Shown one piece after another: positions 3,021-62,043 of a stretch of DNA of 64,000 nt. The notes beneath the pieces are model-generated. The model searched no databases, was not told where the DNA came from, and was given only the letters and a program-made list of their open reading frames with translations. A program made the position numbers and the translations under genes. Source of the DNA: a virus (taxonomy: Duplodnaviria; Caudoviricetes); the IMG/VR virus record IMGVR_UViG_2595698668_000001, positions 64,001 to 128,000 of that record; one strand, given 5' to 3'. How positions within the stretch are numbered: the stretch's first letter is position 1; every line of letters begins with the position of its first letter.

Positions 3021-3041
3021 TCCAGTTCTCCAAAAAATAAA

Positions 3042-3081
3042 ACGGTATAAGGATTATCTCCCTATACCGTGAACATGTCAA
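3042..3081 (-). promoter_or_regulatory. sigma70-type early promoter with -10 inside a palindrome
   Basis: Minus strand TTGACA-N17-GATAAT; arms acggtata (3042-3049) and tataccgt (3063-3070). Confidence 0.7.
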
Positions 3082-9179: not shown

Positions 9180-10158
9180 TCAATTCCTTACGACGTTGTT
9201 TGATTGCTTTACCAAGTTCTTTGCCTTGAAGTTCTGGGAAGTCCTTAGCACTTACAGATCGCCACAAATCGATGTGTTCTTGACAAATCGGTTGGTGCAT
9301 CAATGCATATTGAAGCTTCGGTGTGTCATGAGTTGCACCAGCATAATCGAGAACTTCGAACCGAGACCCAGAAAAATAGTACATCTCCGCTTCCATCCGT
9401 TGATATGAAGTAAGATGAAGTTTCTCATGAACCTTCAAATAACTATCAAAATCTTCACAGTAGTAGCAAAGGTCTGCAATAGTGCTGTCTGTATAGATCT
9501 TTCCATCTTTACTGAGGTTCTTAACAAATTCCCTATCGAACCCAAAGAATTCTACCACGTCGAGTTCCCGAAGTATACCCATGAACACATCAACATGACT
9601 CATATCTTCCATACACTTCATAAACTCAACGAATACCCTCTCTTTAGATACCATATCCAAAGCACCACCAACAATCATATCGGTTACTGCCTTTTCCGTT
9701 TCTGGTTCCATCTTGAATCCGTAGCGTCCAGCAAAACGAATTGCACGGAAAACACGAAGAGGATCATCACGAAACGCATATGGGTTTACCATACGAATCC
9801 GTTTCTTTCCAATATCTTGGATACCATTATAAGGATCGATATAAACAGAGTTTATGGGGTCATACGCGATAGCGTTCATGGTGAAATCTCGACGGTATAG
9901 GTCTTCTTCGATAGTTACATCTGGGTTGAAATCAACCTGAAAATCGTTGTACCCAATACCAGTTGATACCTCTGTACGAGCCAATGCGATCTCTTCACCA
10001 TCATCGTCAAGGTATACTGGGAAATGAGCACCGACACACTTATAACCAAGACCTTCCATTTCTTCTTTTGTGGAACCTACAACAACCCAATCACGGTCTT
10101 TGACCGGTTTCCCCATAATCTGGTCTCGAACTGCACCACCAACAAGATATTTTTCCAT
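9166..10158 (-). CDS. cca: tRNA nucleotidyltransferase (class II CCA-adding enzyme)
   Basis: YLVGGAVRD, DRD, EDLYRRDFTMNAIA, DDPLRVFRAIRFA. Confidence 0.92.
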   Translation of the reverse strand: MEKYLVGGAVRDQIMGKPVKDRDWVVVGSTKEEMEGLGYKCVGAHFPVYLDDDGEEIALARTEVSTGIGYNDFQVDFNPDVTIEEDLYRRDFTMNAIAYDPINSVYIDPYNGIQDIGKKRIRMVNPYAFRDDPLRVFRAIRFAGRYGFKMEPETEKAVTDMIVGGALDMVSKERVFVEFMKCMEDMSHVDVFMGILRELDVVEFFGFDREFVKNLSKDGKIYTDSTIADLCYYCEDFDSYLKVHEKLHLTSYQRMEAEMYYFSGSRFEVLDYAGATHDTPKLQYALMHQPICQEHIDLWRSVSAKDFPELQGKELGKAIKQRRKELIDEV

Positions 10159-10169
10159 TTTATCTCCCC

Positions 10170-10397
10170 TTAGCGAACCATGGTTTTCATTTTCTTAACA
10201 ACCACTGTAGTCTGGGTGGAAGGACCACGACGACCAGTACGGGTGAGGGTCATCGGAGTTTTCTTTTCTACATTCACCGTAGCGGAACGACCCCAGCGAT
10301 TAGCGGAATCTTTACCGTTGTCGGTCATTTTACCGAAGGAAGCAGCACGAGCAGCGGAACGAGTACCAAATACGAATTGAACAGTCATAGTAGTCAT
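10170..10397 (-). CDS. small basic hypothetical protein
   Basis: 75 aa with SD AGGAG and its own promoter. Confidence 0.7.
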   Translation of the reverse strand: MTTMTVQFVFGTRSAARAASFGKMTDNGKDSANRWGRSATVNVEKKTPMTLTRTGRRGPSTQTTVVVKKMKTMVR

Positions 10398-10710: not shown

Positions 10711-10737
10711 AACGATTCTCCTTAGTTTGTATGGCCT

Positions 10738-10765
10738 ATTTTACTTTGTTTTTTAATGATGTCAA
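10738..10765 (-). promoter_or_regulatory. sigma70-type early promoter
   Basis: Minus strand TTGACA-N16-TAAAAT. Confidence 0.65.
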
Positions 10766-16156: not shown

Positions 16157-16684
16157 TCACTGACGATAGCAACCACAAGATCGTAAAAACTTGATGTTTT
16201 TTGCGATCCGTTCGTAATACTCAATCCCATCAGCACTGTTTGGGTTGTATCCAGCGTTATAGCTTTTAACAACCATTTTCCAGTCGCCATTTCGGATTTT
16301 CTTCCAGTACTCAAGCTCCATAAGTGCATAGTTTGCGGAACTCTCCATACTGTTAATGAGTTCGGACCTTAGCTTTCGCTGTTGTTTCCAACCCATCTTA
16401 GCGCCAGTTAGCTGTTCAACTCGTTTAACTGTATATTTCAGGTTGTTCTGGAACACACCATAATCACCAGTACGATTGTTGATTAAAAATTTACCTGCAC
16501 GACTCTCGGTAAGAGCGATTGCAGCCAGTGTAAGCCCATAACCGGAAGACTCTCCCAGCTCATAAGCTCGCTGAATTGTATAAATCTGATTATCCGTTAG
16601 TTCACGGTTTTCATACATAACAGCATTTGCCGATATCGACGTTAGAAGTAGGAGGATCCCTACTAATATACTACCACTTTTCAT
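16157..16684 (-). CDS. vs.1: SLT/lysozyme-like transglycosylase with signal peptide (T4 vs.1-like)
   Basis: AIALTESRAG, GDYGVFQNN, ELEYW, SYNAG. Confidence 0.85.
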   Translation of the reverse strand: MKSGSILVGILLLLTSISANAVMYENRELTDNQIYTIQRAYELGESSGYGLTLAAIALTESRAGKFLINNRTGDYGVFQNNLKYTVKRVEQLTGAKMGWKQQRKLRSELINSMESSANYALMELEYWKKIRNGDWKMVVKSYNAGYNPNSADGIEYYERIAKNIKFLRSCGCYRQ

Positions 16685-16771: not shown

Positions 16772-17002
16772 TTATAAAGCATTGTCAAATTGTTTTACCA
16801 AACTCCAAATCCATTCAGGGCGAATTTCAGTGTGATACACGGATTTGATGTATGTTCTAAGAGCCTTTTGACGTTTCTCAGTAGTCTGGTTACGACCCCA
16901 GATCAGAAGACATTCACCAAGACATATAAGCTCCCGGTTGTTCAACTGGTGTCTTACATCTGAAAAAGCGTCTAAGACCTTGTTAGAATCTACTTGACAC
17001 AT
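16772..17002 (-). CDS. hypothetical protein downstream of the late promoter in the repeat
   Basis: 76 aa with SD AAGGA. Confidence 0.65.
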   Translation of the reverse strand: MCQVDSNKVLDAFSDVRHQLNNRELICLGECLLIWGRNQTTEKRQKALRTYIKSVYHTEIRPEWIWSLVKQFDNAL

Positions 17003-17014
17003 GGTTAAATCCTT

Positions 17015-17128
17015 TTAGTTTCAAGTGCAATCAAAGTATAAAATCTCTATAAGTATTTATATAGAAGATCTATAATTAGAAAGTGTGAGCGAAGCGAACA
17101 GGCGGCTACGCCGTCTCACTACGTTCGA
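17015..17128. repeat. 114-bp element, copy 1 (inverted relative to 58058-58171)
   Basis: Reverse complement matches 58058-58171 at 113/114 positions; TATAAATA on the minus strand at 17054-17061. Confidence 0.97.
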
Positions 17129-17293
17129 ACATCTTTTCACATTCTTTGTCAAAATCTCTATTTTTATTCTTATTTGTAATAAAATTGTATAAATTTGATT
17201 GACCTGTAATCCATTTTGTGGAAGAACGTAGTTTGTAACTATACACATAAAAATTACAAGGGCAGCCATGTAGTGAGAAATTTTTGGTGTTAG

Positions 17294-56929: not shown

Positions 56930-56963
56930 ATTTCCCTAAATACTTTTAGATATTAGAGGAAAT
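56930..56963 (+). promoter_or_regulatory. late-type promoter and SD-sequestering hairpin of the endonuclease gene
   Basis: CTAAATA at 56936-56942; atttccctaa pairs with ttagaggaaat, covering SD GAGGA. Confidence 0.6.
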
Positions 56964-56967
56964 TGAA

Positions 56968-57870
56968 ATGGAAAAAATTAACTATGGTCACTGGGTAACT
57001 GACGAGCAGTTTGACCCAAAAACGGTTCTTGGTTTTGTGTATATGATTACTTTCTCCAATGGTAAAAAATACATTGGAGCGAAACGGGTTTGGAAAAACC
57101 TAAAACGCCCACCATCCACATACAAGAGGCAGGGTAAAACAGAATTTATTGAATCTGATTGGCGCTCATATAGATCCAGTTCAAACGAAGTGGTTGAACT
57201 GGAAACCAGAGGTATAGAGATCTCAGAGATGAGGATCCTTGCCACTTATGATTCTTGGGGTAAAGTACTTCTTTTAGAATGTATGCTCCAATTCTCACTC
57301 AATGCGTTAACCTCCGATATATACCTAAACAAGCAAATTGAAGGCATGTTTACGGGGGCATGTTTTGATAAAAAGGTATACGATGACGTTGCTCGCCTCG
57401 TTGCAATTGAGCAATATGATGAGTCTATCCCACAGGTAATTGTTTACCGTGGTGGAGACAGAAGCGTTATATGTGACAAACAATCAGCAAAAGAATACAT
57501 CAAAGCTGGTTGGTCTGTTGCGTCTTTACCAGAAAAATATCATCGTAAAAGTATTCCAATGGTTCCCTATACAATCAAATGTAAGGAAACTGGGACTGAA
57601 TATACCATCAGTGATTTCAAAACTCAATACGAAGTTTCAAAAAAACTTGAATGTGTTGCAGGGGATCTTAGTCGGCTTCGTTCTGGTGAAATTCTGAACA
57701 TAGGTTCGTACACCATGAAGATTCAACGGGAACCCCAACGTTGGGTAAAAGACGGAGTTTCATACTACAGTACAGCAGAATTGAAATCCGCAAAGGTTGA
57801 CAAATCCGAGTGTGAACACTTCCCAGCAGAAGACCGGGAAGCTTATCGGATTAGATTGTCTAAGGCTTAA
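56968..57870 (+). CDS. GIY-YIG family endonuclease (free-standing homing endonuclease-like)
   Basis: GFVYMIT...GKKYIGAK, ESDWRSYRSS, YLN; the only convincing plus-strand gene. Confidence 0.8.
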   Translation: MEKINYGHWVTDEQFDPKTVLGFVYMITFSNGKKYIGAKRVWKNLKRPPSTYKRQGKTEFIESDWRSYRSSSNEVVELETRGIEISEMRILATYDSWGKVLLLECMLQFSLNALTSDIYLNKQIEGMFTGACFDKKVYDDVARLVAIEQYDESIPQVIVYRGGDRSVICDKQSAKEYIKAGWSVASLPEKYHRKSIPMVPYTIKCKETGTEYTISDFKTQYEVSKKLECVAGDLSRLRSGEILNIGSYTMKIQREPQRWVKDGVSYYSTAELKSAKVDKSECEHFPAEDREAYRIRLSKA

Positions 57871-58057
57871 TAAAGCGATGCCAAGACAGCGAAAGCCCAC
57901 TCAACATAGAGATATGATAGAGATGGGTTTTTGTCAAAGGGGAACGGGATCAGTGGGATTGTTACTGAAAAAGTTTTACTGTTCATCAAAAATTATCCTT
58001 ATGGTTAGTTGATTACTAGATAGTACTACATCCAAAACAGAATGTAAACTATAGATC

Positions 58058-58171
58058 TCGAACGTAGTGAGACGGCGTAGCCGCCTGTTCGCTTCGCTCA
58101 CACTTTCTAATTATAGATTTTCTATATAAATACTTATAGAGATTTTATACTTTGATTGCACTTGAAACTAA
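58058..58171. repeat. 114-bp element, copy 2
   Basis: Reverse complement of 17015-17128 with one mismatch (58119/17067); TATAAATA on the plus strand at 58125-58132. Confidence 0.97.
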
Positions 58172-58183
58172 TCCATAGACACG

Positions 58184-58213
58184 AAAAGCCTACCCAAAAC
58201 AGGGTAGGCTTTT
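58184..58213. terminator. bidirectional terminator
   Basis: aaaagcctaccc-aaaaca-gggtaggctttt. Confidence 0.85.
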
Positions 58214-58216
58214 CAT

Positions 58217-61996: not shown

Positions 61997-62011
61997 TATA
62001 TTGCCCCTATG

Positions 62012-62037
62012 AAAAAGCCACCCCGTAGGATGGCTTT
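62012..62037 (-). terminator. terminator-like hairpin between 34 and 35
   Basis: AAAGCCATCC-tacg-GGGTGGCTTTTT. Confidence 0.7.
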
Positions 62038-62043
62038 GTTTTA

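Follow-up and report, generated by a model that had tools for sequence, protein, structure and literature searches.

Six evenly spaced copies of a noncoding element with an AT-rich module and a hairpin in T4-like Aeromonas phages of the 65/CC2 group

Two kinds of previously described sites in T4-like phages come closest to the element reported here. T4 itself, according to the review by Kreuzer and Brister 2010 (PMC3016281), has at least 5 dispersed replication origins in its 169-kb genome that share no common motif; the minimal oriF and oriG, about 100 bp each, combine a promoter lacking a −35 hexamer with an AT-rich unwinding element, and priming there is by a persistent R-loop. The PeSL and PmSL cassettes, known from the T4-type phages RB49/phi1, PST/T4, and nt-1/KVP40, are described in two papers (Arbiol et al. 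2010, PMC2839356; Comeau et al. 2014, PMC4122927), where the PeSLs appear as numerous, short, loosely conserved units with a −35/−10 pair and a terminating stem-loop upstream that point at the next gene and are found mostly in hyperplastic regions. The subject of this report is a noncoding element first encountered at positions 17015-17128 of a 64,000-nucleotide (nt) stretch of DNA (the window), which corresponds to positions 64001-128000 of the 231,743-bp virus record IMGVR_UViG_2595698668_000001, the genome of a T4-like Aeromonas phage of the 65/CC2 group, with relatives in the genera Ceceduovirus and Ishigurovirus.

The element consists of an AT-rich, promoter-like module followed by a hairpin module and occupies six loci in this genome. 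The reading that ranks first, with a probability of roughly 0.4, is that it combines a promoter, an unwinding site, and a hairpin and may act as a replication origin of the T4 oriF/oriG kind and as a recombination hotspot. The main rival is a PeSL-like regulatory cassette. These two readings are not mutually exclusive, because the T4 oriF promoter also expresses uvsY.

Copy number, fixed loci, and concerted change

Positions 17015-17128 and 58058-58171 of the window are reverse complements of each other at 113 of 114 nt (repeat search, arms of 114 nt, 99% complementary). In a BLAST search of the window's own genome, this match has an E value of 4e-54 and is therefore not due to chance, so an inverted duplicate 41 kb away, the observation from which the sequence-only reading of the window had started, is confirmed by both searches. 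The same BLAST search shows that the genome carries six copies rather than two (Table 1). They are 114 to 122 nt long and 83 to 99% identical; the longest common stretch, up to 122 nt, is found in copies 2 to 4, with copy 2 having a further 7 nt in common with copies 3 and 4 outside its core, on the side of the hairpin. This is the sole dispersed repeat family with at least 4 copies in the genome and supplies 15 of the 28 self-BLAST pairs. No description of the element was found in the literature searched, including passages of two reviews, supplements aside.

An assembly artifact, named in the sequence-only reading as an outcome that would refute it, is ruled out. The element is found at 5 or 6 places in each of 15 public phage records searched, and blastn lists 3 to 6 places for 18 records. 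In three independent runs, the word depth is 92 to 118 at the element versus about 10 to 14 in the flanks, the contigs break at the element, and the loose contig ends at these breaks read into the flanks of other copies. The GenBank records of AS-zj, AS-sw, and Aszh-1 show Ns, poly-A runs, truncated elements, or a junction of the locus 3 flank with the locus 5 flank at the element loci, faults that are most likely the result of assembly collapse at the six-copy repeat. In this way, the element accounts for assembly breaks in published genomes of the phage 65/CC2 group.

Comparison of the flanks shows that the element occupies the same six loci in this genome as in AS-yj, Assk, P19, G2, Aswh_1, ZPAH1, phage 65, and avDM6; AS-zj, AS-sw, and Aszh-1 were set aside in this comparison for the Ns, poly-A runs, or chimeric junctions inside their repeats. 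Between clades, the flanking DNA is only 69 to 74% identical at the occupied loci. The AT-rich modules are 89.4% identical within genomes (n = 55), whereas across clades the identity is 76.8% between orthologous loci (n = 22) and 77.1% between nonorthologous ones (n = 110). By these figures, the copies evolve in concert, through gene conversion and/or coevolution with a common factor. The near identity of the first two copies had suggested recent copying, but since the six loci are orthologous across two genera, it is to be ascribed to concerted evolution and not to recent duplication. A conserved, noncoding cis-element under selection, the other part of the initial proposal, is supported.

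The gaps between neighboring copies range from 25.6 to 49.0 kb. When 6 of the 143 intergenic segments are drawn at random, a minimum gap this large or larger has a probability of 0.0035, and a maximum gap and a variance this small or smaller have probabilities of 0.0011 and 0.0010, respectively; a uniform null gives similar values. The corresponding tests in phage 65 give 0.002 to 0.009, which lends no independent support, as the loci are orthologous. No association of the copies with strand switches or GC skew is evident in the genome.

Insertions, deletions, and replacements in the relatives start at the edges of the element. The 76-amino-acid (aa) open reading frame (ORF) that abuts copy 1 is present in this genome, AS-yj, G2, and Assk. 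It is missing from P19, Aszh-1, AS-sw, AS-zj, phage 65, and also run X1, where 21 nt take its place. On the other side of copy 1, run X1 lacks the 166-bp segment at 17128-17293, and its sequence is joined right at the element edge; X3 has part of the segment replaced, and P19 has a different sequence there. The original statement that copy 1 lies outside any confident gene is nearly right: its last 23 nt are overlapped by a 63-aa hypothetical coding sequence annotated in relatives, which has no PHROG or Pfam match; the segment 17128-17293, with most of this coding sequence, is missing in one metagenomic relative.

Modules, promoter-like motifs, and genomic setting

Alignment of the copies together with their flanks reveals a two-module anatomy, in which a 68-bp AT-rich module is joined by a short GT/GA-rich stretch of variable length to a hairpin module, a 40- to 45-nt imperfect palindrome. 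The AT-rich module holds a dyad center, and the TCTATA/TATAGA dyads described earlier are present on direct reading. It also contains a 25-nt box, which at up to 3 mismatches has 6 matches in the genome, all within elements; its 15-nt core, at up to 2 mismatches, has 24 matches, 5 of them in elements, compared with 8 to 13 matches in five shuffled genomes. The two −10-like hexamers of copy 1, TATAAG and TATAAT, have their starts 23 bp apart. Most copies have a perfect TATAAT and no −35 hexamer, and a few copies of the relatives have variants such as TACAGT. In nearest-neighbor energy calculated over 50 bp, the elements take ranks 1 to 5 and 10 among the least stable duplex sites of the genome (sites counted as distinct if their peaks are more than 300 nt apart), and over 40 bp they are 5 of the 6 least stable sites.

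The best internal −35/−10 pair is TTGCAA/GTGCAA-N17-TATAAG, which lacks the final T; copies of the phage 65 type have N16-TATAAT. Ordinary promoters of the TTGACA-N16-18-TAnnnT form number 20 in the intergenic regions of the genome and 0 in the elements. An ordinary early promoter was rejected as an identification of the element because no −35/−10 pair in it passes the scan, and the box was rejected as the mark of a general middle-promoter class because its core shows no excess outside the six elements. Among the 28 exact TATAAT sites upstream of genes, promoters of other types are seen (an A-rich upstream stretch with TGTGn-TATAAT), but the box is not. A homolog of AsiA (PF09010 match) is encoded outside the window, at genome positions 215646-215873 on the minus strand. 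The MotA families PF09158 and PF09114 have no match in the genome, and because the control genomes also gave nothing above the cut-off for these families, the absence of MotA rests on these profile searches taken together with the statement in PMC2988021 that phage 65 has asiA without motA. No MotA box of the T4 type was seen by eye in the element, for which no dedicated scan was made. A −35-independent promoter with an activator that replaces MotA is conceivable.

Several early promoters of the TTGACA type elsewhere in the genome have a GC-rich inverted repeat that spans or flanks the −10 hexamer, as at window positions 3025-3053 on the minus strand, and another, at 10711-10738 on the same strand, directly follows a terminator hairpin; these two are PeSL-like composites distinct from the six-copy element. 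Further promoters of this list are located at genome positions 5012, 49067, and 135673.

The motif TATAAATA, which the sequence-only reading had called a perfect late promoter, is found in copy 1 at 17061-17054 on the minus strand. It fits the T4 consensus but not the one used by this phage. Among k-mers, CTAAATA shows the strongest enrichment ahead of genes (34 upstream regions versus 3.9 expected); of its 53 sites, 30 precede a start on the same strand by no more than 60 nt, for the most part among the structural genes, and the element does not carry it. In this phage group, (c)CTAAATA is the motif that resembles a late promoter, and examples in the window are at 56936 (plus strand) and 32799 (minus strand). 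By comparison, TATAAATA has 20 sites in the genome where about 35 are expected; the elements account for 6 of these sites, 2 are close to a start on the same strand, and all copies in phage 65 and avDM6 lack the motif. Late transcription as the main function of the element was rejected on these two grounds, the identity of the enriched motif and the lack of conservation of TATAAATA in the family.

In the hairpin module, GCGAAGC on the plus strand (Table 1) and GGCGTAGCC and ACGTAGT on the minus strand, all pointed out beforehand, are present on direct reading. DNA mini-hairpins of the d(GCGAAGC) and GNA-triloop kind, the subject of work by Hirao, Yoshizawa, and coworkers, are reportedly of exceptional stability in DNA. 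All 16 hairpin variants extracted form a long imperfect hairpin with similar energy on either strand, and their central GC stem of 3 to 6 bp varies in sequence among the copies, yet keeps its pairing and carries a triloop on top. In 19 nonredundant modules, 15 of the 24 triloops are of the GNA type (7 on one strand and 8 on the other) and 9 are of other kinds, whereas 2,000 shuffles give a mean of 1.6 GNA triloops and a maximum of 7. The earlier remark on GNA mini-hairpins is thus borne out and can be extended to the whole family. A terminator scan found none inside either copy in the window, and the hairpin has no T-run. A search of the whole window against Rfam gave no match at the gathering thresholds; the 4 weak matches in 16960-17190 (E values of 0.2 to 5.9) are all far below gathering.

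The relative arrangement of the two modules is variable. The hairpin module is flipped relative to the AT-rich module in copy 6 of this genome and, by comparison with this genome, at locus 3 of Aswh_1. In phage 65, locus 4 has two inverted AT-rich modules that face each other about 70 nt apart with no gene between them, and locus 2 of Aswh_1 has a fully palindromic AT-rich module. In IMG/VR, the box pattern matches 14 loci in 9 contigs, two of which are phage 65 and AS-zj; among the other 7, one is a true, diverged relative, in which hairpin arms are found on both sides of the AT-rich module in a noncoding gap of more than 1.1 kb. On this 16-kb contig, which is viral and unrelated-looking, the gap spans 1195-2336, the diverged module is flanked by the left-arm motif and small GAA-loop hairpins, and more hairpin motifs are found nearby. 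The 15-nt left-arm pattern matches more than 121 loci in IMG/VR; being of low complexity (two GCGAA units), it is expected to produce chance matches, and no conclusion is drawn from it.

The orientation of the element follows the genes at 3 of the 6 loci (copies 3, 5, and 6), while at loci 1, 2, and 4 its forward direction runs antisense or into a terminator. Loci 3 and 4 are among head and baseplate genes, and copies are found in late-gene as well as early blocks. A terminator-like hairpin of the upstream gene precedes copies 2, 3, and 5. The SegE-like homing endonuclease gene adjoins copy 2 only and is a neighbor, not a part, of the element; it lies on the opposite strand between nrdA and the long-tail-fiber gene and has the same place in phage 65 and avDM6. 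A coding role was also considered, in view of a GTG-started N terminus of 15 residues common to two short ORFs that leave the hairpin, and was rejected, as copy 5 does not have this N terminus and the sequences that follow it are not alike.

Table 1. Copies of the element, their parts, and neighboring features. Positions are those of the window unless marked "genome" (positions in the 231,743-bp record); the forward direction of the element runs from the AT-rich module to the hairpin module.
Feature	Position	Strand	Remarks
Copy 1	genome 81015-81128 = window 17015-17128	+	Among small ORFs downstream of alc; both neighbor genes on the opposite strand; element against both neighbors
AT-rich module, copy 1	17015-17082	+	68 bp, about 79% A+T
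25-nt box, copy 1	17016-17040	+	
−10-like TATAAG, copy 1	17048-17053	+	
Perfect TATAAT, copy 1	17071-17076	+	No −35 hexamer
Hairpin module, copy 1	17086-17127	+	Imperfect palindrome; central GC stem and triloop at about 17101-17112; GCGAAGC at 17089-17095
Copy 2	window 58051-58172 = genome 122051-122172	-	Core 58058-58171 (genome 122058); between convergent genes: terminator of the 1279-aa long-tail-fiber gene and the SegE-like GIY-YIG gene beside nrdA
AT-rich module, copy 2	58104-58171	-	TATAAT at 58115-58110 (-)
Hairpin module, copy 2	58059-58100	-	
Copy 3	genome 147633	+	After inh, before a DprA-like gene; with genes
Copy 4	genome 189862	-	gp54-like gene and baseplate hub gene; against both neighbors
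Copy 5	genome 32053	-	In a block of small unknown ORFs, ribosome-binding site and ATG directly after; with genes
Copy 6	genome 219838	-	ndd/topoisomerase region; with genes
76-aa ORF	16772-17002	-	phrog_38638, function unknown; abuts the box end of copy 1
Variable 166-bp segment	17128-17293		Between the hairpin end of copy 1 and the alc stop codon
SegE-like GIY-YIG homing endonuclease gene	56968-57870	+	PF19835, E = 3e-30; phrog_7363
Two-way terminator-like hairpin	58184-58214		3' end of the 1279-aa long-tail-fiber gene, just outside copy 2
Long-tail-fiber gene, 1279 aa	58217-62056	-	

Three other sets of repeats were observed. A 31-nt direct repeat with 77% identity, 16574-16604 and 17183-17213, links the 5' part of an SLT-domain gene with the variable 166-bp segment and may be the remnant of an old duplication or insertion. 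A 36-nt inverted repeat with 94% identity, which looks like a shared terminator hairpin, connects window positions 62008-62043, next to the end of another fiber gene, with genome positions 189816-189851, beside copy 4. Three related stretches with 76 to 83% identity over 100 to 240 nt (window 10156-10391; genome 138576-138814 and 13371-13523) are probably paralogous small genes.

Candidate functions

A replication origin or priming signal, as proposed in the sequence-only reading, is the interpretation with which most of the observed features agree; that the element has promoter activity, forms R-loops, and acts as an origin is in each case something that we infer from the sequence. A function at the level of DNA is preferred to gene regulation because the number of copies is fixed, their spacing is even, the box is unique, the melting is extreme, and the palindrome works on either strand and has DNA-type mini-hairpin loops, and also because the orientation is independent of the genes, some variants are symmetric, and there are signs of frequent recombination. 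In the proposed sequence of events, RNA polymerase, perhaps together with a substitute for MotA (suggested because the phage has AsiA but no MotA), would open the AT-rich module, and transcription would begin at the base of the palindrome, some 7 nt downstream of TATAAT. The displaced strand would fold into the stable hairpin, while the RNA-DNA hybrid would persist and prime DNA synthesis, as it does at T4 oriF and oriG. The element sites could, in addition, be recombination hotspots, which T4 origins are known to be, and such a role would explain the homogenization of the copies and the indels at their edges. The same transcription start may also serve to express the following gene, at copy 5 and, less closely, at copies 3 and 6.

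Several observations weigh against an origin of this kind. A consensus scan requiring at least 9 of 12 matches found no sigma-70 promoter in 17015-17128 or 58058-58171. The AT-rich unwinding element characteristic of oriF and oriG is present, but its position relative to the −10 hexamer is unlike that in T4: there, an AT-rich unwinding element is downstream of the promoter, whereas here the best −10 hexamer is inside the AT-rich module and the sequence after it is GC-rich. The T4 origins share no motif, whereas all six sites here share one sequence. There is no positional parallel to oriF, as uvsY is 9 kb from copy 3 and adjacent to no copy. The six extremes of duplex instability are copies of one sequence and thus amount to a single observation, and AT-rich promoter regions are unstable as well. 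The P values for the spacing come from one orthologous set of six loci and were computed after the positions had been seen. At locus 5, a ribosome-binding site and an ATG follow within about 10 to 25 nt of the hairpin in 4 of the 4 genomes inspected, which fits a plain promoter with a 5' untranslated region equally well. Finally, RNAalifold covariation is weak for the outer stem, where 2 of 12 pairs are compensatory, for which reason the per-variant folds and the triloop count are relied on.

A stronger version of the origin reading, which appears doubtful, is that this lineage replaced the heterogeneous origins of T4 with six sequence-defined ones about 39 kb apart. In that case, the box would be recognized by a dedicated initiator or by a sigma-appropriation partner of AsiA, the GNA-capped hairpin would be the landing structure for a helicase loader or primosome, and the lineage-wide covariation of the copies would reflect coevolution with the initiator plus gene conversion. 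The choice of replication starts in T4-like phages is poorly understood outside T4. If the six sites are origins, being evenly spaced, identical, and easily melted, they would offer a simple and testable system for origin recognition, and work on a box-binding protein could lead to the missing partner of AsiA in phages without MotA.

The PeSL/PmSL-like alternative is possible, if on balance unlikely. Under this alternative, TATAAT would be a phage-specific promoter, for which the box would serve as upstream or activator site, and its transcripts would begin with a protective 5' hairpin; the repeats would merely provide homology for the shuffling of ORFs, with no role in replication. In its favor, the copies are intergenic, the AT-rich module ends about where a transcript from TATAAT would start, the upstream genes at copies 2, 3, and 5 end in terminator-like hairpins, and a ribosome-binding site with a start codon closely follows the hairpin at locus 5 in all four genomes inspected. 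The presence or absence of ORFs and the replacement of flanks at the element edges are also as in PeSLs (PMC2839356, PMC4122927). The features that define PeSLs are nevertheless found only in part. In neither copy in the window does a −35/−10 pair with a spacing of about 17 nt pass the scan, in contrast to the 20 ordinary intergenic TTGACA-type promoters found elsewhere, and instead of an upstream terminator stem-loop, the element has a hairpin that, with the −10 hexamers read forward, comes after the promoter-like module and lacks a T-run. A Shine-Dalgarno sequence and start codon downstream are seen at locus 5 (4 of 4 genomes), but not at loci 1, 2, and 4. Indels do occur at the edges, but the copies number only six, and no wider class of promoters is marked by the box. 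At 2 of the 6 loci, both neighbors are antisense to the forward direction of the element, and at locus 4 of phage 65 the facing modules have no gene between them. The occurrence of copies in late-gene blocks as well as early ones also speaks against this alternative, which leaves the even spacing and the fixed loci across genera unexplained.

Quite improbable is the reading that a phage protein, either DNA-binding or structure-specific, docks on the box and/or an extruded cruciform and has an architectural role, for example in genome condensation or packaging, in the action of a topoisomerase, or in nicking. What speaks for it is a conserved box confined to the elements, a palindrome whose stability is the same on its two strands, and the even spacing of copies whose function seems not to depend on orientation; the copies also change together in each lineage, as expected if they coevolve with one protein. 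Against this, no candidate protein was identified, and T4-like phages package their DNA by the headful mechanism without fixed sites.

The idea of a small mobile cassette, also raised in the sequence-only reading, has little to commend it. A small nonautonomous mobile element resembling miniature inverted-repeat transposable elements or repetitive extragenic palindromic sequences, or a passenger of a homing endonuclease, that had spread recently would account for dispersed, nearly identical copies in both orientations and for the SegE-like GIY-YIG gene beside copy 2; this is very improbable, as the 9 relatives whose copies were inspected, from two genera, have the same six loci occupied and neither an additional nor an empty site, no locus gain or loss is seen, alignments of the copies with their flanks show no terminal inverted repeats or target-site duplications, and the endonuclease gene is beside one copy only. 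Hardly more credible is a late-promoter cassette or small RNA gene driven by TATAAATA, which is present in all six copies of this genome and in copy 1 points at the 76-aa ORF 59 nt away, since the late-type motif of the genome is a different one, copies in phage 65 and avDM6 lack TATAAATA, a separate CTAAATA stands between copy 4 and the start of the baseplate hub gene that follows it, the TATAAATA of copies 2, 3, 5, and 6 points at no nearby gene and is 1.3 to 7.7 kb from the next start on its strand, and no Rfam family matches.

Comparison with known systems

The GNA mini-hairpins are a likeness in structure. C-GNA-G triloops are strongly overrepresented in the hairpin module of the element, and GCGAAGC itself is present; on the other hand, these mini-hairpins are a structural motif and not a functional family, and the GNA loop of the element may be on either strand.

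With T4 oriF (uvsY) and oriG (34), the element has in common a size of about 100 bp, a −10 hexamer without a −35 hexamer, and an easily unwound AT-rich stretch. As in T4, with at least 5 origins in 169 kb, there are several dispersed sites, 6 elements in 232 kb. The position of copy 2 beside the long-tail-fiber gene and that of copy 4 in the baseplate hub cluster are loosely like those of T4 oriG and oriE, which we take to be in gene 34 and near gene 5, respectively. The T4 origins use MotA, whereas this phage has no detectable MotA.

With the PeSLs, the element shares the repetition in T4-like genomes of an intergenic, AT-rich, promoter-like stretch with a stem-loop, a position at junctions marked by the insertion, deletion, or exchange of small ORFs, and the presumed recombination of the units with each other. 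It differs from them in having six copies at fixed, evenly spaced loci across two genera, a gene-independent orientation, no −35 hexamer, and copies in late-gene blocks also. Should the element prove to be only regulatory, it would widen the PeSL concept to a low-copy, concertedly evolving, fixed-locus class that marks small-gene exchange. As it stands, the element resembles both PeSL-type cassettes and T4-type origins, and in its lack of a −35/−10 pair and of an upstream terminator stem-loop it departs from the PeSLs as so far defined.

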